This document shows, piece by piece, positions 2,573 through 44,731 of a stretch of 64,000 nucleotides of DNA (positions are counted from its first letter, which is position 1; every line of letters begins with the position of its first letter). A program made the translations under genes and the position numbers. Origin of the DNA: an uncultured candidate division Zixibacteria bacterium (GTDB lineage Bacteria > Zixibacteria > MSB-5A5 > GN15 > FEB-12); NCBI GenBank assembly GCA_963806185.1, contig CAWDXE010000005.1:192001-256000 (forward strand), in the 5' to 3' direction. The notes beneath the pieces were generated by a model. That model did not search any database, had not been told where the DNA came from, and saw nothing but the letters and a program-made list of their open reading frames with translations.

Positions 2573-4462
2573 ATGAAGATTGGATGGGTTCTACTTACGT
2601 TCGCTGCTGCGTTCGCCGGAAACCTGCAGGCGGCGACAATTCACGAAGTGATTGATCAAGGTGACAGCACAGCGGTCGCTGCCATGTTGGACGAAAATCC
2701 AGCCCTTCTGAGCGAGAGGTTGCAGAATGGTCGGACGCCTCTGCATACCGCCGCGTATGGCGGAAAGCTCAACATTGTCCAACTGCTTGTCAGTCGCGGC
2801 GCGGACGTCAATGCCACGACACCGTTGGGAGCTGCACCACTACACGGTTCAGCGCTGGCCGGCCACGAGGCAGTGGTAGAATTTCTTGTCGCCAAGGGAG
2901 CGAATGTTAACAGCGCCAATCGATACGGCTATACGCCGTTGTACAACGCGACTTCGAACGGCAGCATACCAACGATGAAGTGCCTCATCGATGCAGGAGC
3001 AAGGATCGAGCCATTAACGGACTCGGCGCAGGCTCCTCTTCATTCCGCTATTCTTCGCTGCTGGCCTGAAGGCGTGAGGTATCTGCTCGATGCCGGCGCC
3101 AATGCCAATGTCGCGACGGGGGATCACGGAGATGCGGTCTCATTGACGGTCTTGACGACTGCCTGGAGATTGAGCGGAAATGAAAACGCCCCGGCAATCC
3201 TGAAGCTTTTGTTTGAACACGGTGCCACTGCCACATGGCGATTTTCCGGCGGGTACACGGCCTTGATGCATGCTGCCGGGACTGATGACACTGTGATATT
3301 GGGGATTCTGCTTGATGCCGGTGCCGATCCAAATGCCGTGTCGGACAACGGCGCGACAGCTTTTGGCGCGGCGGTCGGATCCAATAATGTAAACGCGGCC
3401 AGGTACCTCATCAACCGTAAGGCATACCGGCTTGAGGCAGAGGCGACCACCGGCCGTATTCCGCTGCATCACGCGGTCATGGGGGGATCGCTGCCGATGG
3501 TCGAGGCCGTGCTGTCGGTGACCCCTGATCCGAATACGATTGACAGCCTCGACTTCACGCCGCTTGACATGGCCCTCCGTTACGGACACAAAAAGGTGGC
3601 CGAATATCTCAAGACGAAGGGAGCCGTCGCCAAGGGTCAGATGAAAGCGCACCTGTCCTCGTCGTACCTGGCCGAGAAACCTGCCGCGGGCGAGGCCTAT
3701 CTGTGGTATCTCGGGAACTGCGGCTACCTGATCAAGACGCGGGATCACTGTCTCATCTTCGATTACATGACGGGAGGCATGAAAGCGACAGAACCATCGA
3801 TTACTAATGGCGTGATTAATCCGCAGGAACTGGCGTCGGAGAATGTGACCGTGTTTGCCACTCACGAGCATGGCGATCATTTTGACTCCACGATTTTCGG
3901 CTGGCCGGCAACGATTCCCGGACTTGACTACGTCTTCGGCTTTCAACCGGAGTCCCTTGCCGTCGAACGCCGGCAGGGCTATGCCGGTCAACCATATAGT
4001 TATGTCGGTCCCGGCATGACGAAGACGGTCGATGGGATGAAGATCTTTGCCGTACGTTCCAACGACGCCGGCGTCGGTTTTGTAGTCGAAGTAGACGGTG
4101 TAACGATTTATCACGCCGGCGATCTCGCCGGATGGCTGCCGGATCAACGGAATGGGTTCATTGCGCAGATCGACTCCATTGACGCGATATACGATGCGGT
4201 TGACGTCGCCCTGGTCAATGTGACCGGCTGTCACCACCAGGATACGATCGCCTTAGCCGAGGGCACGGCCTACACGTTGGAGAAACTACAACCCAGATTG
4301 GTGATTCCCACGCACGGATACATGCGGGAGAATTACTATCGACACTTCATGAATAAATTCGCCGATCAATTCCCAAGCGCAAAATCATTCTGCCCGATGT
4401 GGCGCGGGGATGTCGCGAAGTTCACGGGCGGCAAAAAACCGGCTCAATTCGAGGTTCTGTAG
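2573..4462 (+). CDS. Secreted ankyrin-repeat protein fused to a metallo-beta-lactamase-fold hydrolase
   Basis: SD AAGGA; signal peptide; repeated G-x-TPLH-x-A...GADVN ankyrin units; C-terminal WYLGNCG, THEHGDH (HxHxDH), YHAGD, PTH. Confidence 0.85.
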   Translation: MKIGWVLLTFAAAFAGNLQAATIHEVIDQGDSTAVAAMLDENPALLSERLQNGRTPLHTAAYGGKLNIVQLLVSRGADVNATTPLGAAPLHGSALAGHEAVVEFLVAKGANVNSANRYGYTPLYNATSNGSIPTMKCLIDAGARIEPLTDSAQAPLHSAILRCWPEGVRYLLDAGANANVATGDHGDAVSLTVLTTAWRLSGNENAPAILKLLFEHGATATWRFSGGYTALMHAAGTDDTVILGILLDAGADPNAVSDNGATAFGAAVGSNNVNAARYLINRKAYRLEAEATTGRIPLHHAVMGGSLPMVEAVLSVTPDPNTIDSLDFTPLDMALRYGHKKVAEYLKTKGAVAKGQMKAHLSSSYLAEKPAAGEAYLWYLGNCGYLIKTRDHCLIFDYMTGGMKATEPSITNGVINPQELASENVTVFATHEHGDHFDSTIFGWPATIPGLDYVFGFQPESLAVERRQGYAGQPYSYVGPGMTKTVDGMKIFAVRSNDAGVGFVVEVDGVTIYHAGDLAGWLPDQRNGFIAQIDSIDAIYDAVDVALVNVTGCHHQDTIALAEGTAYTLEKLQPRLVIPTHGYMRENYYRHFMNKFADQFPSAKSFCPMWRGDVAKFTGGKKPAQFEVL

Positions 4463-4666
4463 ACAGGGTTAGGAACGCCCGTCGATACCATCGGTATTTC
4501 GGCAGAGTCGGCTGACACTATCCGGTCCGAGAACCAGTGAGCTTCAGCCACCGGATTTCCCGGCTCTGCCGCGAAAAATCATTTTCTTCTTCCTCCCAAT
4601 GGTGTAGTCTTAGCCGACAAAACCTGATGAATGGAACAATCTCGCCATTCAGGGAAGGGGAATTCT

Positions 4667-5599
4667 ATGCGTATCAGTACTTCCGTCCTGCAAGTGATAG
4701 GCAATACCTCGATAGTACAGCTTCGCAAGGTCGTTCCGCCCGGTTGCGCCGACATATTCGTGAAACTCGAATGGGAAAACCCGACCGGGAGCATGAAAGA
4801 CCGCACCGCCCAGGCGATGATTGCACGGGCCGAGGATGACGGCCGGCTCAAGCCGGGCGATACCATCGTCGAATACACCGGCGGGAGTACGGGTATCTCA
4901 CTCGCGCTCGTTTGTGTGGCGAAGGGGTATTATCTACATATCGTCACCTCCGACGCGTTTAGTCAGGAGAAGTTAAGACAGATGTCGGCCCTGGGCGCCG
5001 AACTGACTCTGGTCCCCAGCGAAGGTGGCTTGACCACCAAAAAGCTGATTCTGGATATGATCGAAGCGGCGAGAGAAATCAGTACGCGGCCGCATACCTA
5101 CTGGACCAACCAGCTTAGCAATCTCGACAGCATTACCGGATACTATCCATTGGCAGAGGAAATCTGGAGCCAGACGGAAGGACGACTTGATGCTTTTATT
5201 CAGAGTGTCGGCACGGCGGCGTCGCTGCGCGGCGTGGCAAGTGTGCTGAAGCAGCACAACCCGAAGGTCAAGATCATTGCAGTAGAGCCGGCCGAATCGG
5301 CTGTGTTGACGGGCGGCCAACCGGGACCGCACAAGATTGAAGGCGTTGGCATTGGCTACGTGCCGCCACTCTGGGACTCAAGCATCGTGGATGAGATCGT
5401 TGCGGTCAGTACGGACGACGCAAAGGCCATGGCCCGCCGTTTGGCCCGGGAGGAGGGACTCTTTGGAGGCACGTCGTCGGGAGCCAACGTTGTCGCGGCC
5501 ATTCGAGTGGCCGAGCGACTGGGCCCGAAGGCCAGAATAGCGACGCTGATGGTGGATTCCGGCATGAAATATCTCAGCACCGACGTGTATCGGAAATAG
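4667..5599 (+). CDS. cysK: PLP-dependent cysteine synthase-family protein
   Basis: IGNT, KLEWENPTGSMKDR (PLP lysine), HKIEGVG, LAREEGL..G.SSGAN, DSGMKYLS. Confidence 0.85.
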   Translation: MRISTSVLQVIGNTSIVQLRKVVPPGCADIFVKLEWENPTGSMKDRTAQAMIARAEDDGRLKPGDTIVEYTGGSTGISLALVCVAKGYYLHIVTSDAFSQEKLRQMSALGAELTLVPSEGGLTTKKLILDMIEAAREISTRPHTYWTNQLSNLDSITGYYPLAEEIWSQTEGRLDAFIQSVGTAASLRGVASVLKQHNPKVKIIAVEPAESAVLTGGQPGPHKIEGVGIGYVPPLWDSSIVDEIVAVSTDDAKAMARRLAREEGLFGGTSSGANVVAAIRVAERLGPKARIATLMVDSGMKYLSTDVYRK

Positions 5600-5669
5600 C
5601 GGCACAAGTCAGTCGGTTGATCAATGCGCGGTGAGGTGACAATCCACAGGCGTCCGTCGGTCGTTCCAT

Positions 5670-8600
5670 TCACCAGGAATTTCTGACGTGTTGTGAGGAA
5701 GCCAGCACGTTGCGGAAGAATGAGAAATATGGTGAGTCGAGCAAGGCCGTCCATGAACCAGGCCCGTTGTCGCGGTCGTACCGTTGGGCCAGCTCCTCAA
5801 GGAATGACACGATTGCCGGGCTACCCGATTCGGCGAGTTCGCGGATGCGGACGGCGCACTTGATGGAAAGCTCAAACAGGTTCTGGTCTTGGGCGTAAGC
5901 AAGCACGGCCTGGAAGTTCTCCAGGGCAGCGTCGCCGCTGCCGGTCAAGCGATAGAATTCGCCCTGAAGAAACTGCCCCTCGCGATCGATAATGATGGTT
6001 CGCGATTCGCGGGCGTCAGCGCGAATCCGCTCCGTGAGCGCCCAGAGGGTATCCGTTTCTTTCACGCTCACTTTGACACGGGCCAGACCAACCCGGGCAC
6101 GAAGGGAAAATTCGCCCGAACCGATGTCATCGGCCAGTTTCATCGCCGCTTCCAGTAATTGTTCGGCCCCGGAAGTGTCACCGGAAAAGAAAGGCCACTT
6201 CACCCAGGCGGACTTTGCATTCGGCCTGAAGGTCACCGTCAGATACTGATTCGGCGAAAGCGAGGGCTTCGTTAAATCTGCTGCGGGCACGATCAAGATC
6301 GCCGCTGACAAGATCGATGTCGCCGAGATTGCCGACGGTGTAGTAGTGGGCATGCCGATCGCCCAAGCGCTCGAAAATGATGTCAGCCTCGGCCAGCATG
6401 TTCGCCGCATCGGCATGTTTACCGAATTCCCGAATGAGGGCCGCGAAATTTCCCCGAGCGTAGGCTTCGTTGCGTCGATCGCCCTGCCGGCGAAAGATGT
6501 CTATTGCCTCGCGCATGAGCGGTTCCGCCTGAACCAGGGCACCCATTTGCCAATGCACAATGGCCAGATTGTTGGCCAGGCGAGCCCGGTTGTACATACT
6601 GGCTTCACGCTGATCGCCGGACAACGATTTCTGAAGGCACGTGACGGCGTCGGGGAGCTTTCCCAGCGCCCATAACGCCAGTCCCAGTCGGTTGTAGGCA
6701 TCGGCGCAAGCAGACGGATCGTCGGACTTGGCCAGAGCCTGGCGGGCCCAGGCTTCTGCATCGGCAAAACGCCCCGTGCGGCGAGCCACCTCGGCCAGCA
6801 GCGTCATTCCTTTGGCCACCAATTCCGGGGATTCCTGCAGTGGGATTTGGTCGAGCGCCGCCCGCAATACCCGCTCACACCGTCCGTACTTTGATTGTTG
6901 CCAGAGAAGTTCGGCTGTGCCAAGCACGGAGGCGAGTGCCGAGGCAGAGTCGGCCAATCCCTCAGCCAGTCGGCGCCATGTCCGAAAAGTACGATACGCC
7001 TCAGTCACGCGTCCCTCGAGTACCAGGAATCGCGCGAATTCCCGGTGAAACGCCACGACCTGCTTCGGCGGAATGAGCGCGGCCCCTTCAGCACCCATCA
7101 ACGATTGGCAGTTCTCGAAATGGTGGGCGGCATCGCCGAGAGCATACATCGACAGCGCCGTCCGGGCAGCCGTTAACGAATAGGAGTACCCCTTGACAGT
7201 CTGCCGGGCACCGGCGTAGTGATAGGCCAGTAATTCAACCTGGGCCGGATCATGCGCTTCCAATCGGCGGGCAGACCGCAAGTGCCAGGCCATGAGATCA
7301 GCGCGCGGTATGCAGGAATGAATCGCTTCCTTGAGCGATTGACTTTCGAATCGATAGGCATGCTCGGCTTCGTTTGGGCGAAGAATCCCGCGGAGACACA
7401 ATTCATTCAGGCAGGAATCAACGTATGGGGCAGCCAATTCGCCGCTTACCTCAGCGATCAGCGCGGCGTCGAATTCCGTCGCGGCGATGGCACACAGCTT
7501 GAGAACCGAGCGGAGTCCTTCCGGTAACGCATCAAATGTTTCCAGATTGAGGTCACGTGCGGAGCGCGGGACGGTGATTTCCGTTGCCGCCTGCCTGAGT
7601 TCCCACCGGGAAGTCACCGGATTGGCGACCAGATCACCGCTGGTCATCCGCTGACTCAGGAATTCGAACACGGTGCGCGGCAGGCCGTCAGACTGCTCGA
7701 TCAATCGGTCGGCCAGATCCTCTTCTCTTCGCCCGTTCGAGAGGTGCGCACTGAAGTACTGACGCCATTCGGCTTTGGACGGCGAGCACAGCTCGCTCGA
7801 ATCAAACGCAGTCGTGCCGGCAGATCCATTGATGACGGTCAAGTCCGACGTCGTGGCCAGTATCGTTGCGTCCAGTTCGGAGCCAAGGCTGCACAGAACC
7901 AGAATGAGCTGCCGGGAGTAAGCATCGGCCCCGTCCAGGTCATCGATGGCAACGATCACGTGATCGCTGATGAGACCGCGGACAATATCCGTGAAGAGTT
8001 TGTCGGCCATTGACTGACGGAGTTGCGGGGTCAGGTCTTTCGTCCAGGCGTCGTTTTCCAACGATCCGTCGAGAACGCCGCTCAGCGCCGCCAACGGCTC
8101 ACCGGCAAATCTGGTCTGCACCCACTGACCCAGTCCGATCGCTGCAGCCTCGGGATTCAGGGCAGCGAGTTCGGACAGCAATTTGCGGGCGACATACCCG
8201 GGTTTAAAGAAGATTGCCTGCCTGGCATCCAGCATGATTCGGAGGCGATTTTTGCTCCCCGTCAAACACGATCGCAACACGAGGCTCTTCCCCGTGCCGT
8301 GGGATCCGCAGACGATTACAGCCTGACGCCTGTTTTCCGAAACGGCTGTATTCAGCCGATCGAAAGCGCGCTGGTACGACGTATGCAGGAACATCTCCCT
8401 CTGCGTGTCCGATGCGGATTCGACAATGAGTTCGTCGATGTATTCCAGACGATGAACAGTGATCGGTTCAACGAACCCCTTGACGGACAATTCCTGGGGC
8501 CGACTGATGACCGAGGTCGGGAGGAGCGCCCGCATAGTATCATTTAGCAGCACTTTCCCCCAATCCGCCTTCGCCATGAGGCGTGCGGCCAGATTGGCGG

Positions 8601-9717
8601 CTGAGCCCATGATTGTATACTCGCGGCGCGTATGTGAACCCACGGCGCCGCAGAAGGTTCGACCACACGCTGCGCCGACGCGGACCTGGAAGTCCGCCTG
8701 ATTGAGCAGACTGATTTGGCGAGCGCATTCCAACGCCCGCCAGTGATCGTCACTGCGCTTCACCGGAGCACCAAACAAAATGAGTAATTTATGGCCGTCC
8801 TTGAACGGGTCGATTCGGGCAAGGCTTCCGCCGAACTTCCGTACGAGTTGCAAAACCTGGCCGACCCGGTTCCTCACGACGTCGATATCTCCGGCAGTGA
8901 GCTGATCCTCCCATGCGCATTCGCAGAAGAGGACGGCAATCTCGCGATACTCGCTGTTCATCCGGCTGGAGCCGGCATCGCCGGCCATTCGCCCGATTAG
9001 CGCCTGCGGCACATACCGCCAGAGTACTGACTCCTTGCATGCCAGTTCCGCCTCACTGAGCGCAACCTGGTTTGGCCTCGTGGGATTGGCCGAGATGGCA
9101 GTTGATTGCTGCTCCGCAGAGGGGAAGGGAGTCGGCGTGCCGGCGGCCTGAAATCTCGTCAGTTCCGGTCCAACCACGATCTCACCGGCCACGGCGCGGT
9201 CACAGCAGGCATACGCTTCGCTCACCACTTTGCCGATCGGCTCAGCCTCGAGCCTATGCTTCGCATCGCCAAAAGAGACGAGCTCAAACGATCCCAGTTC
9301 CGCACCGAGATGAACGCTGATCGGATCAGACTTCAGGTAATCGTGGCGACCATTCACATCGCGAAGTGAACTTTGGATGGCCTCAGCCAGGGCGATGACA
9401 GCGTGCGGATCGGGCAGGTACAGCCAGAGACCGTCGCCCGAAAATTTGAGTACGTCGGCGTCAAATCTGTCGGCTACGTCGATGACCACCGAGAAGAAGG
9501 CATTCAATACGTGGGTGAGAATTTCCGGTCCGTCTTCTCCGCCCGCTTCCAGTTTTGCGGTAAGCCGGGTGAAGCCGGAAGCGTCAAGACAGACGAGCAC
9601 GCCATCGTGCCTGGTCCAGTGATGAATTTCGCCGGGATGACTTCGGTACCATTGCGCCAGCCTGCGCGGCAGAAACGGCAGGATCAGGGCGCCTGATTGT
9701 TCGATTTCACCGGCCAT
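5670..9717 (-). CDS. Class III nucleotide cyclase with two cyclase domains, STAND/AAA ATPase and TPR repeats (sAC/ADCY10-like); one frameshift near 6190
   Basis: LDASGFT and KFSGDG in domain 1; EYTIMGSAANLAARLM in domain 2; Walker A GSHGTGKS, Walker B IDDLD; LAYHY; TPRs continue in ORF 5670..6416 after an apparent extra T in GCCTTTCTTTTCC. Confidence 0.85.
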
Positions 9718-10060
9718 AGATGGTCAACCGAAGGGCGAAAAGTATGAGCAGGTGAATGGCCTGATCGAGATAGAAGCTCTGCTTGCTCCCGGCAAAACCG
9801 TTCACTTTTACGTAGTCCTGAATCCAGTGCTCCACGAAAAGGAAGAGCAGTATCGGAATGGTGGCCCATTGCATGACGACGACAGCGTCTGCCATAACGT
9901 ACGCGGCCAGCAGGGCAGCGGCAATGGTCAGCGTATAAATGGCGACATGCAGCGTGAGGGTGGCTTTGGATTTTTGCTTGTCGCGGGCCATTCGGTCGGA
10001 CTGCAGGGCGAAATCGCCGCACACGTGGCCAAACAGCAGGAAGAACAGCAGATCAGGCAT
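9707..10060 (-). CDS. DUF3307-like small membrane protein
   Basis: MPDLLFFLLFGHVCGDFALQ...LHVAIY...EHWIQD...LDQAIH with hydrophobic helices; overlaps both neighbouring genes. Confidence 0.75.
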   Translation of the reverse strand: MPDLLFFLLFGHVCGDFALQSDRMARDKQKSKATLTLHVAIYTLTIAAALLAAYVMADAVVVMQWATIPILLFLFVEHWIQDYVKVNGFAGSKQSFYLDQAIHLLILFALRLTIYGR

Positions 10061-11582
10061 GGTGTATCTCCGCCTGCACCGGCAGTGTGATTTCAAAAAC
10101 CGTGCCTCGGTCCGGAGTGGAGGATACGGTAATTGTCCCCGCCTGTGACTGAACTGCTTTGGCCACCGACACCAAGCCGATGCCGTGGCCGCTTTTCTTT
10201 GTGGTGAAGCGCTGCCGGAATACCTTGTCAAGGTGTTCGGCGCTGATGCCGGGCCCATTGTCCTCCACGCGGATGACCACCAGATGTCCCTGCTCCCGGC
10301 ATGCGAGCTGGATGGAAACGGTTTTTATTCCCGCGCGCGTGACGCCCTTGAGGGCCTCGGCGGAATTGAGGAGCAGGTTCAGAACGACTCGACGCACGAG
10401 ATCTTCGACAACAGCCACGGTCCTCGGAAATTCGGGCTCTGCCTTGAGATCAAAGGTAATCTCGGAAAAGAGGCTCTGTGAACGGCAGAAGCGCAGGAGT
10501 GTCCGCACAAGATTAACCAGGTCCACCTGGGAGGCGGAGTCGGTGTGGCGATCGAGCACCATCGCCTCCTCGAGAAAGCTGAGTGCCTCGGTGGTGGTGG
10601 ATTCAATGGCGCTGATCGAATGGGCCGATCGCTCTCTCTGCTCCGGCGTCAGGCGCGTCTGCAGGAGTTGGAAGTGTCCGCTGATGACGGCCAGGTAATT
10701 TTTCACGTCGTGCGCAAGCTCCGCGATGACATCCTGAGTGGCGCCATGCTTCTCAACCGCCAGGATGGTTTCGTTCAGTGCTTGCAGTTCCGATATGTCC
10801 TGACAAAGGACGAGGAACAGAACGCCGGAGTCAGATCCTTCGATGACCGATACCGACGACAACACCGGGAACGAGACCCCTCCGCGTATTCCCGTGACTT
10901 CCACATGTCTGGAATCATCTCGGGACGCATCAGTGAGCGAAAGATGCAGATCGGGAAGAAGGTCCTGGATGGTCACGTCCGAGGCATCGCCGGACAACTC
11001 GAACATACGGCCGGCCGCTCGGTTGAGCCGAAAGATCTCGCCGCTCCGCAGCGCGATCAGCACCGCACTGGGAGATTCCTCGATAAGCCGATCGAGAAAG
11101 AAGTTCAGGGTGGTTAGCTCCGTGTTGGAGGCCGCCAGAGCGCGGTTGCTGTCCTCAAGTTCGAGGATGCGCGTGGAATCGGACTCCCTGAGCTTTCCAC
11201 TCAGACTCCTGAGCACTCGGATAGCAAGGGCGGGCCATTCCTGAATGGCACGCTCAAAATTGGCGCGAGTGAACTCCAGCACCTCACAGTCGGAACGGGC
11301 GATTACGGTGGCAAAGCGCGGTGAGGCCTCGACGATGGCCATTTCGCCCAGAAAATCTCCCGGGCCGCGGGTGGCAATCACGCGAACGTTGTCAGAATGT
11401 TCGACGCGCTTTCTGACGTCAAGAGCACCCTGCAGCACGAGAAGCATGGTGTTCCCGGGCTGTCCCTCGGTGAACAATACTTCCCCCGCCTTATACCTCC
11501 TGGCCAGCGAATATTGGCTCGCCAACTGGAGTAAGAAGAGGTCCAGTGCCGGGTTAGTCGAATTGGGATGAATCAGTGCCAT
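10053..11582 (-). CDS. Cytoplasmic sensor histidine kinase with cyclic-nucleotide-binding and PAS domains
   Basis: GEVLFTEG...GDFLGEMAIVEASPRFATVIA (cNMP cassette); PAS NRAAGRMF; H-box LAHDVKNYL; NLLLNS; DNGPGI; FTTK; GHGIGL. Confidence 0.9.
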   Translation of the reverse strand: MALIHPNSTNPALDLFLLQLASQYSLARRYKAGEVLFTEGQPGNTMLLVLQGALDVRKRVEHSDNVRVIATRGPGDFLGEMAIVEASPRFATVIARSDCEVLEFTRANFERAIQEWPALAIRVLRSLSGKLRESDSTRILELEDSNRALAASNTELTTLNFFLDRLIEESPSAVLIALRSGEIFRLNRAAGRMFELSGDASDVTIQDLLPDLHLSLTDASRDDSRHVEVTGIRGGVSFPVLSSVSVIEGSDSGVLFLVLCQDISELQALNETILAVEKHGATQDVIAELAHDVKNYLAVISGHFQLLQTRLTPEQRERSAHSISAIESTTTEALSFLEEAMVLDRHTDSASQVDLVNLVRTLLRFCRSQSLFSEITFDLKAEPEFPRTVAVVEDLVRRVVLNLLLNSAEALKGVTRAGIKTVSIQLACREQGHLVVIRVEDNGPGISAEHLDKVFRQRFTTKKSGHGIGLVSVAKAVQSQAGTITVSSTPDRGTVFEITLPVQAEIHHA

Positions 11583-11875
11583 CGTTTCCACTGTATCGGA
11601 ATTACTCGCGTTCGGTTGACCGAACCAGCCCCAACTTGACGAACTCAATTCCCCTTGCCGATTGCGGCTTCAACGATGGTCCAAACGGAGATCATTCCTG
11701 CCTTAAATATTGGGGATGGCGGTCAACTGTTTATGGGATTTCCACCCCGAAAATTCCGGAAAAATCTACTGTGCAATCCGTCACCATCCGATCTGTTCAG
11801 AAAACGACGGCCTAACCCACACTGATACTGCAAGTTGCGGGATGTGCACAAAAGGTGTTTCACGCTGAAACAGTC

Positions 11876-11891
11876 GGGCAATTCATTTGCG
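11876..11891 (+). promoter_or_regulatory. Putative sigma54 -24/-12 promoter
   Basis: GGGCAATTCATTTGCG: GG(11877-78)-N10-GC(11889-90) with GGCA and TTGC boxes, 65 nt before the ATG at 11955. Confidence 0.5.
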
Positions 11892-11954
11892 AACATTGAA
11901 TGTCAGAAGACGCAGAATCGTCAGCTAGGCCCGCAAGGCCAGGAAGGAAGAAGC

Positions 11955-12548
11955 ATGAAGCCAAAGTCGAACCAGAGCTGGATAAGCAGATCAGTGCTGT
12001 GCCTGGTGTTGGTCTTCTTCTCATTAACAATATTCACAAGTTGCTCCAAAAACCCAGTCACCTCCAACAACCTCACCGACAACACCCAGTCCACACTGGC
12101 GTTGCTGAATGAGAGCTTCACTGAAGACGGCCCGAGTCTGGCCGCGTCGATTAACTTCGCCAACGCTACTGTCGTCTACGACACTACGATAGTGCAATTG
12201 GTGAATCAGTGGGGCTACCAGATGAATGCCATTCACGGGGCAGAGATCCTCGGCTTCTCTCTGCCGTACATGGCTGTCTCCAAACCGACGACGTTGACCA
12301 TTCATGTGACAGAGTACCGGGCCTCTTTCGGAAAGTTCTGGCTGCTTGATTGTGGGCCGGAAGGACAGACTTTTAAGTACCCCCTCTACGTCCAGGCCAA
12401 CGCGGCTGCCCGTAGCGGCTCCTCATTGGTGCTGTTCTACTACAATCCAGTGACCAAGCAGTGGGAAGTCACTGAGAAGGCAAAGGTCAATTCGGGTTCG
12501 AACCCGCAGGTACCGATCTATCACTTCTCGAAGTATGCCATAAGCTAG
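11955..12548 (+). CDS. Lipoprotein with ZU5-like domain
   Basis: SD AGGAAG; lipobox IFTSC; CGPEGQTFKYPL and C-terminal HFSKYA resemble ZU5-like motifs. Confidence 0.65.
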   Translation: MKPKSNQSWISRSVLCLVLVFFSLTIFTSCSKNPVTSNNLTDNTQSTLALLNESFTEDGPSLAASINFANATVVYDTTIVQLVNQWGYQMNAIHGAEILGFSLPYMAVSKPTTLTIHVTEYRASFGKFWLLDCGPEGQTFKYPLYVQANAAARSGSSLVLFYYNPVTKQWEVTEKAKVNSGSNPQVPIYHFSKYAIS

Positions 12549-12576
12549 TCAGTGCCATTCGATTTGCAGTGCGCCG

Positions 12577-12606
12577 ACCCCGGACGGAATCCGTCCGGGG
12601 TTTCTT
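12577..12606 (+). terminator. Rho-independent terminator
   Basis: ACCCCGGACGG-AAT-CCGTCCGGGGT followed by TTCTT. Confidence 0.8.
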
Positions 12607-12632
12607 ATACTATATCACCTCACCAATCATGA

Positions 12633-12662
12633 TTGACCCCGGCCATCAACAGCACGTACCTT
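12633..12662 (+). promoter_or_regulatory. Putative sigma70 promoter of the nitroreductase
   Basis: TTGACC-N18-TACCTT. Confidence 0.4.
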
Positions 12663-12709
12663 TCATCGAGCGACACAACATGTTCACCGACAGAATAGGA
12701 GTCGAGGTT

Positions 12710-13654
12710 ATGACCGACGATTCTGATGGACTTTCGCATCATGGGGTGGATGATCCGGAACGGGAAGGATACCCCAACGATACCTTGCGGTTGTTGATCG
12801 ACCGCTCAAGTTGCCGGAGTTTCGAGGATCGCGCTATTCCCGAGGACATTCTCTCCCTCGTCCTCGACGCCGGCATACACGCCGCCAGCGGCGGTAATCT
12901 GCAGCCGTACTCAATCATCAGAATCGCCAACCCGGAGACCAAGGCGCGCCTGGCCGCGCTGAATGGGGACCAGATGTTCATCGCCGCGGCGCCAGTGAAT
13001 CTGTTGTTCTGTATCGACTGGCACCGCATCCACCGGTGGACGCAACTCGAACAGGCCCCCTTCTCCGCTGACCATTCTTTCCGCCACTTTTGGATTTCCT
13101 TTCAAGACACGATTATCGCCGCTCAGAACATCTGCACAGCGGCCGACGCACTCGGGTTGGGATCGGTTTATGTCGGTACGGTCCTGGAGTGCTTTCGCGA
13201 AATACGCGACCTGTTGAATCTTCCGAAGGACGTCCTTCCCGTGGTGCTGCTCTCCCTCGGGTATCCCAAATTCCGCCCCGCTCCGAAAAAGAAACTCGGT
13301 CAACGAGCGATCGTACATGAGGAGAAGTATCAGGATCTGTCTGATGACGACCTGCGCGGAGTCTTTGAGGCAAAGTACCCGGGATGGAAGATGGAAACCA
13401 CTGAGAAACGGCTCGAACGGATCGCCGAAGTTTGCCGGGCTGTTCATGGTGCGGCGTTTGCCGACCAGTGTCTGGCGACGATCAATCGCCGGGGACACAT
13501 CAGTGCCGCGCAGAATTATTTCGGCTTGCACTACGTGGCGGACGGTATGCCGCTTGGCAATGACGAGTTCCTGAAGATAATGAAGGAGTTCGGCTTCGGA
13601 TGGTTTGAACGATTTGAGCCGGCGGAAACGCGAAGCAACCGCACCGCGAAGTAG
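12710..13654 (+). CDS. Nitroreductase family (NfsA/FRP-like) flavoprotein
   Basis: RSSCRSF, AASGGNLQPY, DTIIAAQN...ADALGLGSVYVG, LGYP; SD AGGAG/GAGG. Confidence 0.85.
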   Translation: MTDDSDGLSHHGVDDPEREGYPNDTLRLLIDRSSCRSFEDRAIPEDILSLVLDAGIHAASGGNLQPYSIIRIANPETKARLAALNGDQMFIAAAPVNLLFCIDWHRIHRWTQLEQAPFSADHSFRHFWISFQDTIIAAQNICTAADALGLGSVYVGTVLECFREIRDLLNLPKDVLPVVLLSLGYPKFRPAPKKKLGQRAIVHEEKYQDLSDDDLRGVFEAKYPGWKMETTEKRLERIAEVCRAVHGAAFADQCLATINRRGHISAAQNYFGLHYVADGMPLGNDEFLKIMKEFGFGWFERFEPAETRSNRTAK

Positions 13655-13690
13655 CTAGCCGGGTTCATAATCCAATAGCGCCCGTTCCAC

Positions 13691-13722
13691 AAAATAAGCG
13701 GGAGATCAAATGACCTCCCGCT
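13691..13722 (-). terminator. Terminator of the peroxidase/cytochrome-porin operon
   Basis: Minus strand AGCGGGAGGTCA-TT-TGATCTCCCGCT followed by TATTTT. Confidence 0.7.
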
Positions 13723-13752
13723 CATCCGGACCGCGGAAATCAAGTCCCGGAT

Positions 13753-15031
13753 CTAGAAGGCAAAATCGAGCAGCAGCCCAAGTTGATCGTTTCTGGCCTT
13801 GTCCGTCTTCCCTATCTCACGATGCGTGTACTCGGCGTTCAAGGCGACGTTGACAGCGGTCCAATCGCCGAGATAGTACCGTAACAAGACGGAGAACGCA
13901 TTGGTCTTTCGTTCTTCGTCGGATTTGGGCGGAGAGATCCAATTGAAGACGAGCGAGCCGACCAGTCGGTTGTTCATGAGCCCAGCGTAATCAAGCTGAG
14001 CGAAACCGCCGGTATATTTGTAGTTCTCGTGGAGCTCGGCGTCGGTTCCCCTATTGTCGATTCCTTTGTCGTCTGATCCCTGCATGAACATCCCATGCAC
14101 ATTAACAGTCTGCCAGTTCAGACTGACATCGCCACCAATGCGACGAAACGGCTTGTGAGCGTAGCCGTTTCCCTGACCAGCCGGATCAAACGCGGAGTCG
14201 CCCGGCAGCTGTCGGCTGCCATCCAAGATAGCCGAAAAGGCCGATTCGCTGTCCCGCGCTCTGTCCTTCACCGCGACCGAGGACCTGAGCGACACGGAGA
14301 TACAAGTCCTTGGCGCGACTATTGTCGGGGTTGGCGCCGCTGCCGTTGACAATCCCGCAGGCATAGCGAAACCCATTCCTGAAATGTCCAGTCACTTCCA
14401 GCCCCATCTGGTTGTCGTCGAACACAAACTGGTTGGACGGAGTTGTGAAGGTGTATATGTCGTAGGGCTGAATCAGGTAGTATGACCTCTTGCTGCTGAA
14501 TGGATGGTATGCCGGCTCAAACCGTCCGACTCGCAGGTTCACCGCATCCTTGACAAGATTACTGAACACCAGATTGACCGATTCGAGTGCCCGCCGGTTG
14601 GCTCGGGTTGGAACCGTCGGCCGAGCCCGTGTAATCGGCGGCCGGCTCATCAATGCGGGGCGTGTAGATCAGAAGATAGGAGATATTCTTGTGCAGGACT
14701 CCGGCAGACAGCAGGTCAAGTCCGTTCAGCGCAAAACCGGCCGTATTGGCCGTCGTTCGTATGGCTGGACATCAGCCCAAAGCTCGTTCTCAAGAGCCAA
14801 CGGAGGAGCAGTCTCAAACACGTTCTTTTCCAGCCCCTCCTGCCCGGGACTCTGATAGCCGGCAATTCCGAAAGCGCTGGCCGAAGTCGTTCAGTTTGGT
14901 GTAGCCGGTGTGGCACATATTGCAGTTGAAGCCGTACTTACGCGCGAAGGCCGGGATCCCCTGGCTTAGCTGAAGGCACCATAAGTAGTATGCCCGTCAC
15001 GATCGCAAATGATCTCATCGACTCTGCTCAT
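13753..15031 (-). CDS. Cyc2-like fused monoheme cytochrome c and outer-membrane porin (several frameshifts in this sequence)
   Basis: SD AAGGAGG before ATG 15031; hand translation gives GIPAFARKYGFNCNMCHTGYTKLNDFGQRFR..GYQ (CxxCH at 14910-14924); barrel strands NLRVGRFE, FRYACGIVNG; ends LLLDFAF. Confidence 0.75.
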
Positions 15032-22220: not shown

Positions 22221-25070
22221 TTGTCAATCGTGCCATTCGACGACCAAAATGACAACACCCGATCATACGTTCAACTTGCACACGATAGCGTAATCGGGCA
22301 CTACCGGATCATCGAGCGAATCGGCGCCGGCGGGATGGGTGAGGTATATCGGGCCCATGACGAGCTTCTTGACCGACCAGTGGCGATCAAGTTCCTGTCG
22401 GCTCAACGATGCCTGAGTGGGGACTACCGCCGACGTTTCCTGCGGGAGGCACGGGCCGCCGCTCGGCTTCACCATCCCAACATTGTCATGACGCTCGACC
22501 TGGGCGAGAACCAGGGGATTCCCTACATAGTTTTTGAGTATCTCAATCCCCGGACGCTTCGTCAGCGGTTGAATGAGTCTACGCCGGATATTGAAGAAAT
22601 ATTGAGGATTTCGATCGGGCTGGTCGACGCCATCGGCGCGGCGCATCGCCACGGGGTCATTCATCGCGATATCAAACCTTCCAATATCCTGCTCGACGAG
22701 AGCGGCAATCCGAAACTCGTCGATTTTGGCCTGGCCATACTCTCCACCGTCGATTCCGACACGCGCACAGCAGGAATTGTTGGAACGCTGGGTTACATGT
22801 CGCCGGAGCAGGCTCGCGGAGAAGAGATTGACGAGCGCAGTGATTTGTTCTCTCTCGGTGTGGTCATTTACGAGATGATCACGGGAATGAATCCATTTCG
22901 CAGAGACTCCGAGGTCTCCAGCCTTCACGCGCTTATCAATGAAGAACCCGGATCGATCCGCAGGCATCGCGGCGACGTTCCGACTCGCTTGGACGATATT
23001 GTGATGGCCTTATTGCAGAAGGATGCGTCGAGCCGTTACCAATGTGCTGAACACCTTCGCGATGATCTCGTTGCCTGCCGTCAGCCGGCCAGCCTTGACG
23101 GGCCGTTGCGTACCGGGCCGTGTGTGGCCGAGAATCGTCTGGCGGTCATGCCCTTTGATAATCTCGCCTCTGAAGATACAGCGAGTCGCGTCGGCGAGAT
23201 GATCGCCCATCTGTTAATCACCGGCTTATCCGATATCCGAGGCGTCAGCGTGGTGTCAGGCCAGCGCCTGTACGACCTGCTGTCGCTGGAGGGACGACAG
23301 GAGACTCGAAAAATCGATCGATCGATGGCGACGCGCCTGGCCCGCCGGGCGGAAGCTCGCTGGATGTTACTTGGATCAATCTTCAGCCAGACGCCGTTAG
23401 TCTTGACCACACAGCTTGTCGACATTAACAGCGGCCTCCTGGTGAAGGGGCACCGTTTTGCTCTTGCCGCCGAGGCTACCATATTTGACGCCGCCGATCA
23501 GGTGCTGGCCAGGCTGCAAACGGACCTTAGCGATCGCGGCGGTGGACAGATGGGCGGGCCGGTGCCAATCACGAGTCTTACCACCCATTCCGCTGATGCG
23601 TTGCGTCATTACCTGCTGGGCTTCGAGTGGCAAGCACGATGGAATGAAGAAGGAGCCAGGGAGGAATACGAACAGGCGGTAGCGTGCGATCCGACGTTCG
23701 CCATGGCCTATTATGGCCTGGCGACTATCCCCGTGCCGAACCGGATGGCCTTGATCGAGAAAGCGGAGTCTCTGGCGGAACGAGCTACATATCGGGAGCG
23801 GTGTTACATCAGAGCCATGCGGTTGCGCCTTCAGGGGGACCGTCAGGCTTCGATGGCGGTACTCAAGGAACTTCTCGAACGGCACAGTGATGAAAAGCTG
23901 GCCTATCATTGGATTGGCGTTCACCATCACTTCCTGGGCAATTTCGAGGAGGCAATCAAGTATCTTCGCAAAGCCATTGAACTGGATCCGTTGTATTTCC
24001 CGGCCTATAACCAGCTCGTGTACACGCTCAATCGCGCCGGTCAGTTTGAAGAATCCATGATTGTCGCCAACCAGTATATCCAGCTTTCTCCCGATGAACC
24101 CAATCCCTACGACTCGCGCGCGGAGGTGCTCGGCTTTAACGGGCGACTGGAAGCTGCTCTCGCTTCTTATCGTGAGGCACTTGCCCGCACGCCGCTTCTC
24201 CCCCCCAGTCTCATGCGAGCCGGCGTGCTCTATGTTCTGAAGCAGGATTACGATTCGGCCAGGGAGCTTTTCGATCGACTGCCGGCGCTGGTTTCGAGAT
24301 CCCCGTGGATTGACCCGCATGTCTACTACGTGACCATTCCTCTGCGACAAGGCAAGTGGCGCAAGGCGCTGGCGTATCTCGACTGTGGGATTGCAGAAGA
24401 TCTGCCGCACGAGGTGCGCCGGTTGCACGTAGCGTATAAACGCGAACTCAAAGCCATCACATATCTGGAAATGGGCCTGAACGCGGATGCGTTGCGGGAA
24501 ATGGACATGGCTATGCCTTCCTTCGGAACGCAGATATGGTATTACTCCGGCATGCATATGCACATCCTTCATGCTTGGCTATTGGCAAGGAATGGACACA
24601 TATCGGAGGCTCTGAAGAAGGTCGAAAGCGAGGTCGGGCACAGCGACGCGATTGAGCCGGTGCTTCGCATGCGGTATCTGCTGACCCGGGGGCTGGTATA
24701 CTATGAGGCGGGAGATCTTGATCGTGCGGTCGCGCTATTGGAAGAGGCTGACGAGACTAAACCGCGATGGCTCTCGACGGAGCACTTTGTTCTCCAGGGC
24801 ATGTTGGCGCGATCCAACCTGCGTCTCGGCAGGCTGGATCGCGCAGTTGAACTCTTCGAGTCTTCGATGCACGTCTTCGCCGAATCCAGAGCCTGGCTCA
24901 TGCTGTTGGACGTCAAGAATCACTATTATCTCGGATTGGCATATGAACAGTCTGGCTGGGCGACGAAAGCAGCAGAGCAATATCGGACGTTTCTGGAAAC
25001 GTGGAAGGACGCCGAGGACGGATTCCCGGAGATTGAAGACGCAAAGGTACGGCTGGCAAAGCTGCCGTAA
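22221..25070 (+). CDS. Ser/Thr protein kinase with TolB-like domain and TPR repeats
   Basis: IGAGGMGEVY, VAIK, HRDIKPSN, DFGLA, GTLGYMSPEQ; LAVMPFDN; DPTFAMAYYGLA and further TPRs. Confidence 0.92.
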   Translation: MSIVPFDDQNDNTRSYVQLAHDSVIGHYRIIERIGAGGMGEVYRAHDELLDRPVAIKFLSAQRCLSGDYRRRFLREARAAARLHHPNIVMTLDLGENQGIPYIVFEYLNPRTLRQRLNESTPDIEEILRISIGLVDAIGAAHRHGVIHRDIKPSNILLDESGNPKLVDFGLAILSTVDSDTRTAGIVGTLGYMSPEQARGEEIDERSDLFSLGVVIYEMITGMNPFRRDSEVSSLHALINEEPGSIRRHRGDVPTRLDDIVMALLQKDASSRYQCAEHLRDDLVACRQPASLDGPLRTGPCVAENRLAVMPFDNLASEDTASRVGEMIAHLLITGLSDIRGVSVVSGQRLYDLLSLEGRQETRKIDRSMATRLARRAEARWMLLGSIFSQTPLVLTTQLVDINSGLLVKGHRFALAAEATIFDAADQVLARLQTDLSDRGGGQMGGPVPITSLTTHSADALRHYLLGFEWQARWNEEGAREEYEQAVACDPTFAMAYYGLATIPVPNRMALIEKAESLAERATYRERCYIRAMRLRLQGDRQASMAVLKELLERHSDEKLAYHWIGVHHHFLGNFEEAIKYLRKAIELDPLYFPAYNQLVYTLNRAGQFEESMIVANQYIQLSPDEPNPYDSRAEVLGFNGRLEAALASYREALARTPLLPPSLMRAGVLYVLKQDYDSARELFDRLPALVSRSPWIDPHVYYVTIPLRQGKWRKALAYLDCGIAEDLPHEVRRLHVAYKRELKAITYLEMGLNADALREMDMAMPSFGTQIWYYSGMHMHILHAWLLARNGHISEALKKVESEVGHSDAIEPVLRMRYLLTRGLVYYEAGDLDRAVALLEEADETKPRWLSTEHFVLQGMLARSNLRLGRLDRAVELFESSMHVFAESRAWLMLLDVKNHYYLGLAYEQSGWATKAAEQYRTFLETWKDAEDGFPEIEDAKVRLAKLP

Positions 25071-43330: not shown

Positions 43331-44731
43331 TTATACCGCACCCTTACGGAAACGGGCCGGTTTGATGCCTGATTCCTCGCGATATTTGGTAACCGTGCGT
43401 CGGGCCAGTTGAATGCCCTCTTTGTGGAGCATTTTGAAAATCTCCTGATCTGACAACGGCTTATCCGGGTTTTCGGCGCGGATAATATCCTCGATCCGCT
43501 GCTTGACCGACCGCTTGGACACGTCCTCGCCGTCGTCTTTCGCAATCCCGGTATTAAAGTAGTATTTGATTTCGTAAATGCCCAAAGGGGTCTGCACGTA
43601 TTTGTCGCTCGAGACGCGGCTGATAGTAGCGACATTCATGTCTACCTTGCGGGCAATGTCCTCCATGATGAGCGGCTTTAAGAACGCCGGCCCTTTCAGA
43701 AAGAATTCCTTCTGTTCTTCGATGATCGCTTCCATCACCCGGATCATGGTTGACCGGCGCTGATTGATGGCGTTCAGCAGCCAACGGGCCTGTTCCAGTT
43801 TTTGCCGGACATAGTCCTTGGTGTCTTTGCTGGTCGTATTCCCCCGCTTAACCAGGTCCTTGTAGCCGGCGTTGATACGGAGCCGCGGAACGTGCCGATC
43901 GTTGTGGAACACGACGAACTCGTCACCAAACCGCTCAATAATCAGATCCGGCACCACCGGCATGGCGCCCACGTCAAACCTTCCCTGCGCCGGCGTGGGG
44001 GCCAGCCCGCGAATGACATCCAGTGCCTTCTGCACTCGTTCGAACGGGACGCCCAGCATCTTGGAAAGCTGCAGCGGCGACTTTTTCTCCAGGTCGTGTA
44101 TGTGCTCGTCGACAATGCGCCAGGCCAGGGTGTTTTCCAGCCCCTTTTCGCGCAACTGGATCAGCAGCGATTCGCGCAGGTCGCGCGCCCCAACTCCGGT
44201 GGGATCGAATTTCTGAATCAGCAACAGAGTGTGGGTGATCGCTTCTTCTTCTATTTGCAGCTCGGCCGCCATTTCCGCTACGCTGATGGCCAGGTATCCG
44301 TCGGAACGAATATTTCCGATGACATACTCGCCGATCATATGCTCCTGTTCGGACAATTTCAAAAACGACAACTGTTCAAGCAGATGGGTGTACAGGCTCT
44401 CACCTGCCGCCGCCGTGCCCTCAAATCGTTCTTCGTCCGACTCCCGCTGCTCGCGAACTTTGTATCCTTCGTCGTCATTGGAGAGGTAATCATCCCAGTC
44501 TATCTTCTCTTTTTCCTGGGTTTGTTCGTTCATCCCCAGATCTTCTTCCGGGGCGGTCTCCGGAGTCTCGTCGGTCAGGTCGACCTCTTCGAGCAACGGA
44601 TTGATGACCAATTCGTGCCGGAGCGTCTGCTCGAGCTTCAAAATGGGCATCTGCAGCATCTTCAGCGACTGAATAAGCTGCGGCGCGAGGGTCTGCTTGA
44701 GAGATTGACGTAAACTAATGCCGAATTTCAT
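43331..44731 (-). CDS. rpoN: RNA polymerase sigma-54 factor
   Basis: PQLIQSLKMLQ, DPTGVGARDL, ATISRV, PLSDQ, RpoN box ARRTVTKYRE. Confidence 0.97.
   Translation of the reverse strand: MKFGISLRQSLKQTLAPQLIQSLKMLQMPILKLEQTLRHELVINPLLEEVDLTDETPETAPEEDLGMNEQTQEKEKIDWDDYLSNDDEGYKVREQRESDEERFEGTAAAGESLYTHLLEQLSFLKLSEQEHMIGEYVIGNIRSDGYLAISVAEMAAELQIEEEAITHTLLLIQKFDPTGVGARDLRESLLIQLREKGLENTLAWRIVDEHIHDLEKKSPLQLSKMLGVPFERVQKALDVIRGLAPTPAQGRFDVGAMPVVPDLIIERFGDEFVVFHNDRHVPRLRINAGYKDLVKRGNTTSKDTKDYVRQKLEQARWLLNAINQRRSTMIRVMEAIIEEQKEFFLKGPAFLKPLIMEDIARKVDMNVATISRVSSDKYVQTPLGIYEIKYYFNTGIAKDDGEDVSKRSVKQRIEDIIRAENPDKPLSDQEIFKMLHKEGIQLARRTVTKYREESGIKPARFRKGAV

Follow-up and report, generated by a model that had tools for sequence, protein, structure and literature searches.

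A conserved gene cassette of Zixibacteria that may link cyclic nucleotides to sigma54 transcription of surface lipoproteins

The genome of an uncultured Zixibacteria bacterium (assembly GCA_963806185.1, here G000, 82% complete) carries, in a 64,000-nucleotide stretch of contig CAWDXE010000005.1 (positions 192,001 to 256,000; the window), a cassette of four genes for a cyclic nucleoside monophosphate (cNMP)-binding histidine kinase, a DUF3307 protein, a cyclase fused to a signal transduction ATPase with numerous domains (STAND) and tetratricopeptide repeats (TPRs), and a lipoprotein. Conserved residues and conserved gene neighbours give an even chance that the cassette is a Zixibacteria circuit in which a cNMP signal controls sigma54 transcription of surface lipoproteins. 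Each part is of a known kind, and the four-gene circuit as a whole is likely to be undescribed: no description of the cassette was found in the open-access literature (subscription papers and supplements lay outside the search), and the accessible parts of PMC8195603 and PMC12419801 do not describe the circuit.

The proposed circuit would begin with a cytoplasmic ligand that, as knowledge of the STAND family suggests, likely gates the tandem C1-C2 cyclase through its STAND-TPR part. The product would, with good confidence, be a cNMP read by the kinase pocket, and with moderate confidence most likely cyclic AMP (cAMP). It is fairly probable that the cNMP would then set the balance of kinase and phosphatase activity on an NtrC-type regulator from another locus, for which an orphan at G000:C3:175873-177393 is a tentative candidate, and reasonably probable that the regulator would control the sigma54 promoter of one or more ZU5 lipoprotein genes. 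The DUF3307 protein might possibly clear the messenger as a metal-dependent cNMP hydrolase. The cassette is probably regulatory.

Layout and conservation of the cassette

The cassette comprises the following features, in window coordinates.

10053..11582, minus strand: cNMP histidine kinase, 509 amino acids (aa) from ATG, matching a 509-aa database protein
9707..10060, minus strand: DUF3307 protein, 117 aa, with a four-helix model
6178..9717, minus strand: main frame of the cyclase, 1179 aa, with C1-C2, STAND NTPase and TPRs
5670..6191, minus strand: second frame of the cyclase, its C-terminal ~170 aa (TPR tail), with the switch at ~6190 in a pyrimidine run
11583..11954, no strand: divergent intergenic region between kinase and lipoprotein genes, 372 bp
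11856..11872, no strand: perfect 17-bp palindrome, a predicted regulator site, with 7-bp arms around a 3-bp spacer and separated by 4 bp from the -24 element that follows
11877..11890, plus strand: sigma54-type promoter element (-24 GG, ten bases, -12 GC), pointing to the lipoprotein gene
11955..12548, plus strand: lipoprotein, 197 aa, with lipobox Cys30, a ZU5-like beta-sandwich and H190-F191-S192 (nt 12522-12530)

The three minus-strand genes and their overlaps of 8 nt (10053-10060) and 11 nt (9707-9717), described in an earlier reading of the window from its letters and open reading frames (ORFs), can be read in the sequence as stated, and Pfam bears out the domain calls (cNMP_binding, PAS, HisKA and HATPase_c; DUF3307; Guanylate_cyc, AAA_16 and TPR). 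That sequence-only reading was also right to find no response regulator in the window: the receiver-domain matches on the contig lie at 35046, 70365/70725 and 267992, all outside 192001-256000, and the whole G000 genome has 64 such matches. Its description of the operon as self-contained does not hold, since the lipoprotein gene with its sigma54-type promoter is a fourth part of the unit and a response regulator, if any, is encoded in trans. No Rfam match was found over 4500-14000, and counts of sigma70 promoters and terminators were at shuffle level only.

Among 285 Zixibacteria genomes surveyed, the DUF3307 profile was found in 91 (88 strong, single-copy matches) and the kinase in 63 at E 1e-60. 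Genomes, fetched loci, families and genera are designated below by G, L, f and g with a number. Ninety loci were fetched, 60 from kinase matches and 30 from DUF3307 matches (G279 was left out), and the kinase, DUF3307 and cyclase genes stand in the same order on one strand (the triad) in 84 of them, from 84 genomes of 13 families; an ordered triad that recurs this often is not due to chance. The six other loci are two contig ends, a second copy in G245 without DUF3307, a truncated kinase in G121 and two distant DUF3307s. In some families the cassette is close to fixation (18 of 21 genomes in f5, 9 of 10 in f16, 11 of 14 in f17, all five in f18 and 12 of 15 in f20), and in others it is rare (14 strong matches in the 107 genomes of f1, 3 of 33 in f4 and none of nine in f13).

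FastTree phylogenies of the kinase and cyclase from 72 loci, compared with each other and not with a species tree, share 37/42 and 29/32 of their well-supported splits (patristic r 0.87). Most families cluster together, and f1, f3, f4, f9, f10 and the second copy of G245 are intermixed, which suggests that in these lineages the cassette moves as a unit. G245 holds two cassettes, a native full triad (L047, on C9) and a copy of foreign appearance (L173, on C5) that has a pseudokinase and lacks DUF3307.

The cyclase frame of the window ends at 6178, and intact orthologues align across the frame switch at ~6190. A single ORF of at least 1300 aa encodes 65 of the 84 orthologous cyclases; 13 are cut at contig ends and six are split. 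The tail past the switch is 63% identical to its closest relative, versus 75% before it, and 5 of 52 loci tested elsewhere in G000 are also frame-split, an assembly-wide indel rate near 10%. These split loci and the conservation of the tail favour an indel in the assembly over a real mutation, and the frameshift near 6190 is probably an assembly error.

Signal synthesis, reading and removal

Among solved structures, human ADCY10 is nearest to the cyclase (E 5e-66 versus 9e-37 for the next family), and two aligned stretches to PDB 4clf and 4oya show C1 and C2 in tandem in one chain. C1 carries D45, K91 and D95, and C2 carries R301, D303, K310, T368, N375 and R379; D45, K91, D95, N375 and R379 are conserved in all 72 cyclases compared, and the Asn and Arg of C2 have catalytic roles in class III cyclases. 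The STAND part has Walker A at 471-478 (Lys in 56 of 57 sequences) and Walker B at ~592 (acidic in 54 of 57). In ADCY10, Asp47 and Asp99 bind metal and Lys334 reads adenine (Table 1 of PMC12867704, in part). The adenine-reading Lys is absent here, its position being Arg301 in 71 of the 72 cyclases; D303 and K310 are conserved along with it, and the product may therefore be other than cAMP.

The bicarbonate site of ADCY10 requires Lys95 and Arg176 (PMC12867704, in part), and half of it is kept in the cassette: K91, the Lys95 equivalent, is invariant, and position 169, the Arg176 equivalent, is never Arg in 57 sequences, with Tyr, Met or Phe instead. The Lys-only pattern has been reported for a pH-regulated sea-urchin enzyme (PMC12867704, in part). 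Bicarbonate activation was rejected as the default trigger because the Arg176 position is not Arg.

The kinase consists of a cNMP-binding domain, a coiled coil, PAS and HisKA/HATPase_c, and no hydropathy window reaches 1.6, in line with the earlier view that it has no membrane segment. Its key residues are the pocket G79-E80...R89, the phospho-His H291, N406 and D441. The pocket (G79, E80, R89, A91 and D135) is conserved in 72 of 72 kinases, and since the other two cNMP-domain proteins of G000 lack the pocket Arg, the kinase, with its Gly-Glu...Arg, is the only canonical cNMP reader found in that genome. The window kinase has intact H, N, G1, F and G2 boxes; its best NCBIfam match is AtoS, far below the cut-off. 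The phospho-His is accompanied by Asn at H+4 in 61 of the 72 orthologous kinases, 49 of these 61 having an acidic H+1, and phosphatase or binding activity may be as important as autokinase activity.

The sequence-only reading had proposed that the cyclase writes a cNMP message and the co-encoded kinase reads it. The invariance of the catalytic residues and of the pocket agrees with this logic, as does the genome, in which this cyclase is the only class III cyclase found (at 82% completeness) and the kinase pocket the only canonical one. ADCY10-like relatives of the cyclase number 10,061 clusters at E values no higher than 1e-30. In an incomplete all-genome scan from which the best 80 loci were taken, the kinase stood beside the cyclase in 24 (23 as triads and one on a contig of 3 kb whose record is titled Calditrichaeota); within 6 kb of the other 56, neither a cNMP domain nor DUF3307 nor the lipoprotein was detected.

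The DUF3307 protein was earlier called a His/Asp-rich membrane protein. The composition stands, strengthened by an invariant set of residues (H12, D16, Q20, H38, H78, D82, D99, Q100 and H103) that forms a predicted metal site, and the membrane location is a prediction, with four apolar helices in the model and one hydropathy window above 1.6. D16, Q20, H38, H78, D82, D99, Q100 and H103 are invariant in 15 sequences of ~23% mean identity. The model is a four-helix bundle (predicted local distance difference test score 90.5) for which Foldseek, VIA (best Z 7.8, generic bundles) and profile searches gave no significant PDB match. A viral structure library returned other DUF3307-type proteins only, no close relative was found in viral contigs, and the main text of the Lipocone paper does not name DUF3307. 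Short DUF3307 proteins are common in phages, jumbo phages included (Atlas and BFVD matches).

Outside the phylum, five of 11 DUF3307 loci adjoin a gene for a cNMP-domain protein or a class III cyclase, in a sample of 50 of 69 genomes that is biased because it was originally chosen for a cNMP motif. The neighbours in L205, L217 (Verrucomicrobiota), L216, L213, L218 and L214 are a stand-alone cNMP protein, a Crp regulator, a cNMP-GAF-SpoIIE protein or a class III cyclase, L205 adding a fourth type of cNMP neighbour. In L199 (1-3235, genome G073) an unrelated single-domain cyclase-STAND-TPR gene has a DUF3307 gene of another subfamily immediately behind it, so that cyclase and DUF3307 are paired independently there. 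A SatD gene lies beside DUF3307 in L200 (weak match), L206 and L207. Because the His/Asp set is kept and cyclases or cNMP proteins are neighbours in other phyla, DUF3307 may erase the signal; by association, it may be a metal-dependent cNMP-handling protein, most simply an eraser.

The lipoprotein, its promoter and a candidate regulator

Clustering of 1,315 flanking ORFs revealed one family of ~200-aa lipoproteins in 49 genomes of nine families. The window lipoprotein, the only copy found in G000, points away from the kinase across the 372 bp. The gene occurs beside the triad in three arrangements (tandem, convergent and divergent), and 43 of the 69 loci with enough sequence to show it have it downstream of the cyclase at a distance of no more than 1 kb. 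At E 1e-30 the close subfamily is present in 82 of 88 triad genomes versus 13 of 197 others, a comparison that loses weight because the profile was made from triad-adjacent copies and related genomes are not independent; within the window's family the figures are 15 of 15 with the triad and 1 of 93 without. At E 1e-8 a more distant subfamily lifts the triad-less genomes to 70 of 197. In genus g23 (L034, L036, L033, L038 and L045), four to six ZU5 lipoprotein genes, diverged from one another, stand in tandem behind the cyclase, several of them with a sigma54-type element of their own.

The lipobox Cys and a C-terminal HFS are invariant in 56 of 56 aligned lipoproteins. The lipoprotein has no Pfam match, and a ZU5-like fold is indicated, with moderate scores overall, by the model and Atlas, by Foldseek (the top ten rows are all ankyrin ZU5, best E 2e-4), by a profile search of PDB (ZO-1 ZU5, E 4e-4) and by VIA (Z 8.4, root-mean-square deviation 3.4, 120 residues aligned), in which the score is only about 1 above unrelated sandwiches; the fold matches include both ZU5 and GAIN domains. 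PIDD and Nup98 cleave themselves at HF/S (PMC3210808, in part), and the lipoprotein is predicted to do so too, which would leave a tail of six residues in the window copy; the tail after HF/S has six or seven residues in 50 of 73 copies and is a beta-strand in the model. Bacterial ZU5 autopeptidases have been described in large toxins and surface proteins (PMC3482391, in part).

The commonest spaced pair of motifs upstream of the lipoprotein genes, in 28 of 72, has the -24/-12 form that is the consensus of sigma54 promoters, and its spacing and position are conserved. A tolerant sigma54 pattern matches 50 of 72 lipoprotein upstream regions (mean 5.1 and maximum 10 in 30 base shuffles), and a strict one matches 51 of 72, versus 5 of 78 upstream regions of the kinase. 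The 17-bp palindrome, perfect in the window, is found in 38 of the 72 (shuffle mean 1.2, with a pattern derived from the same set); it abuts the -24 element in eight cases, and elsewhere overlaps the promoter or sits 69-92 bp upstream. It was not seen in f14, f19, f20 or the native copies of f16. The only rpoN (sigma54) gene found in G000 is at window 43331-44731 on the minus strand, ~31 kb from the cassette, and the genome encodes about 20 enhancer-binding proteins.

Four f14 genomes of one genus have an NtrC-type gene between cyclase and lipoprotein, whose best match in G000 is the orphan at C3:175873-177393 (L203, 7874-9394), with no kinase within 15 kb. In a quick tree, the f14 genes and the orphan form one clade (support 100) with a shared recognition helix. 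The orphan is highly conserved and present in 242 of the 285 genomes of the phylum, and is likely to be a global regulator whatever its link to the cassette. G227, G228 and G232 have no copy of the regulator that scores like those of the triad-less relatives G215 and G230.

Alternative readings and known systems

Besides the origin of the lipoprotein profile, several observations weigh against a circuit that runs by phosphotransfer to a sigma54 lipoprotein promoter. The catalytic core is degenerate in 11 of the 72 kinases, ten without the His and one with the His but no ATP boxes, all in one clade (support 0.997) that retains the cNMP pocket and the linkage to the lipoprotein; this and the acidic H+1 in only 49 of 61 indicate that phosphotransfer is not a universal output. 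In f6, f17, f18 and some of f20 the lipoprotein is unlinked to the triad, and the lipoprotein and cyclase trees agree only loosely (8 of 14 supported splits, r 0.34). The palindrome is confined to f1, f4, f5, f9 and one second copy in f16, and in many cases it lies across the promoter, a position expected of a repressor site. Since the candidate regulator is present in 242 genomes, co-occurrence cannot support it; the adjacency of NtrC and cyclase genes is one event in one genus, a lead and not a pairing, and the adjacent f14 copies lack the GAFTGA motif, as f14 promoters lack the palindrome. Six of the 11 DUF3307 loci outside the phylum have no cyclase or cNMP neighbour, and the window's own cyclase copy is frameshifted.

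The alternative that survives best, though unlikely, is output by protein contact, in which the cNMP-bound kinase or pseudokinase would bind a regulator or the DUF3307 protein, the latter serving as a scaffold or effector in the membrane, with no more than co-regulation of the lipoprotein. The 11-member pseudokinase clade that keeps pocket and linkage fits such an output, as do the pattern of Asn at H+4 in 61 of 61 with acidic H+1 in 49 only, the small stand-alone cNMP proteins beside DUF3307 in L205, L216 and L217, and a palindrome that often overlaps the promoter. It is opposed by the phospho-His, present in 61 of 72 kinases including that of the window, and by the His/Asp set of DUF3307, which, being invariant across distant relatives, points to catalysis or metal binding more than to a scaffold.

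An extended form of the circuit would make it an analogue of adhesion receptors that signal to cyclases: the self-cleaved lipoprotein tail would act through DUF3307 or the TPRs on the cyclase, whose product, possibly not cAMP, would signal through the kinase and sigma54 for more lipoprotein, with DUF3307 as a new family of cNMP enzyme or receptor. This is improbable, and peptide feedback in general, by which the six- or seven-residue tail would activate the cyclase via DUF3307 or the TPRs like a tethered agonist or a peptide quorum signal, is comparably improbable. In RRNPP-like quorum sensing, a short exported peptide with an import route binds a TPR receptor. Feedback of this kind would suit the HFS invariant in 56 of 56, the tail of six or seven residues in 50 of 73, the ZU5 and GAIN fold matches, the tandem arrays in which diverged copies number up to five or more and the ten pseudokinase loci with a lipoprotein on the contig, all of one lipoprotein clade. 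However, the pieces of ZU5-type cleavage usually remain associated (PMC3210808, in part), the tail is a strand of the model, no import route is linked and no transporter recurs in the flanks, tails are near-uniform, unlike strain-specific quorum peptides, and the window lipoprotein clusters with f5 copies, which its cyclase does not.

Defence, the other option left by the sequence-only reading, would have the TPRs sense a phage protein and the cNMP response protect or kill the cell in the manner of Avs or Pycsar. STAND-TPR sensors of phage proteins are common (PMC13581612, in part), STAND-fused cNMP cyclases of one clade have a predicted role in immunity (bioRxiv 10.64898/2026.08.12.744502, in part), and DUF3307 has relatives in phages; the distribution is patchy (14/107 in f1), host families are interleaved in the tree for the part of the phylum to which the window belongs, and the base-reading position is non-canonical. 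This option is decidedly improbable: there is no nuclease, TIR, pore or other toxic effector; PADLOC matches are weak and confined to the shared cyclase and cNMP domains; a defence context like that of Pycsar or Pucsar was not found among 13 window neighbours and 23 recurrent flank genes, which have generic domain matches only (non-recurrent flank genes were not scanned); the cassette is near-fixed, single-copy and syntenic in f5, f16, f18 and f20; and non-defence STAND clades are interspersed with defence ones (PMC13581612, in part). Local decay, with a real frameshift and a truncated cyclase that is dead or deregulated in G000, would account for the frame switch in the assembly, the six split cyclases among 84 and the truncated kinase of G121 with no cyclase nearby, and is very improbable given 5 of 52 split loci in G000, a tail still 63% identical past the switch (75% before) and all motifs intact.

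Elsewhere in the window, two overlapping ORFs in different frames at 13753-14653 (minus strand) look like one split outer-membrane-type gene with a probable assembly frameshift and no Pfam match. A 949-aa Ser/Thr kinase-TPR protein at 22221-25070 (plus strand) has PADLOC matches to its generic kinase domain, and an exported-looking fusion of ankyrin repeats and a metallo-beta-lactamase fold is encoded at 2573-4462 (plus strand).

If the proposed sigma54 circuit is true, a cNMP signal would feed directly into two-component and sigma54 control, in a phylum whose signalling has hardly been described. We know of no resolved ligand for the STAND-TPR tail of human ADCY10, and the cassette offers a compact, expressible system for what such tails sense. 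It also bears on the role of stand-alone bacterial ZU5 lipoproteins and on the function of DUF3307, a bacterial and phage family repeatedly found beside cyclases and cNMP domains, which in the literature searched was named only by a phage genome paper; phage DUF3307 proteins are candidates for cyclic-nucleotide counter-defence enzymes.

The cassette shares features with several known systems. Like ADCY10, its cyclase has tandem C1-C2, metal-binding Asps on C1, Asn and Arg on C2, a P-loop NTPase and TPRs; unlike ADCY10, it has Arg-x-Asp...Lys in the Lys334 region and Tyr, Met or Phe at the Arg176 position, and unlike the 56 other ADCY10-like cyclases it has genes for a cNMP kinase, DUF3307 and a lipoprotein beside it. 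Bacterial cyclase-STAND-TPR proteins of the SWACOS type, a name used in PMC13581612, share the same plan. Pycsar and Pucsar likewise encode a class III cyclase with a cNMP-binding protein, whereas the reader here is a histidine kinase and not a cyclic nucleotide-binding domain-TIR or 3TM effector, and the cyclase is a 1350-aa STAND-TPR fusion. Avs and NLR-like sensors have the same plan of a STAND NTPase, a C-terminal TPR sensor and an N-terminal enzyme, but the N-terminal enzyme of the cassette is a messenger synthase in place of the toxic effector of Avs, and the cassette is near-fixed in several families.

SatD, which we take to have a cyclase-like palm, resembles the triad in its pairs with DUF3307, which stands directly behind its partner gene; the SatD-linked DUF3307 proteins differ in having 250-270 aa and a second membrane region, with no kinase or STAND protein. 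PIDD, the FIIND of CARD8 and NLRP1, Nup98 and the adhesion G-protein-coupled receptors (ZU5/GAIN) share with the lipoprotein a ZU5-like fold with HF/S at the end of the domain, whereas the lipoprotein is a stand-alone protein of 200 aa with only six or seven residues after the motif, and bacterial ZU5 domains elsewhere are parts of large toxins or surface enzymes (PMC3482391, in part). Like NtrB/NtrC systems, the cassette combines a soluble PAS-HisKA kinase and a sigma54-type promoter with an NtrC-type candidate partner; unlike them, it has a cNMP pocket with input from a co-encoded cyclase, a regulator that is not co-encoded, and a clade of pseudokinases.

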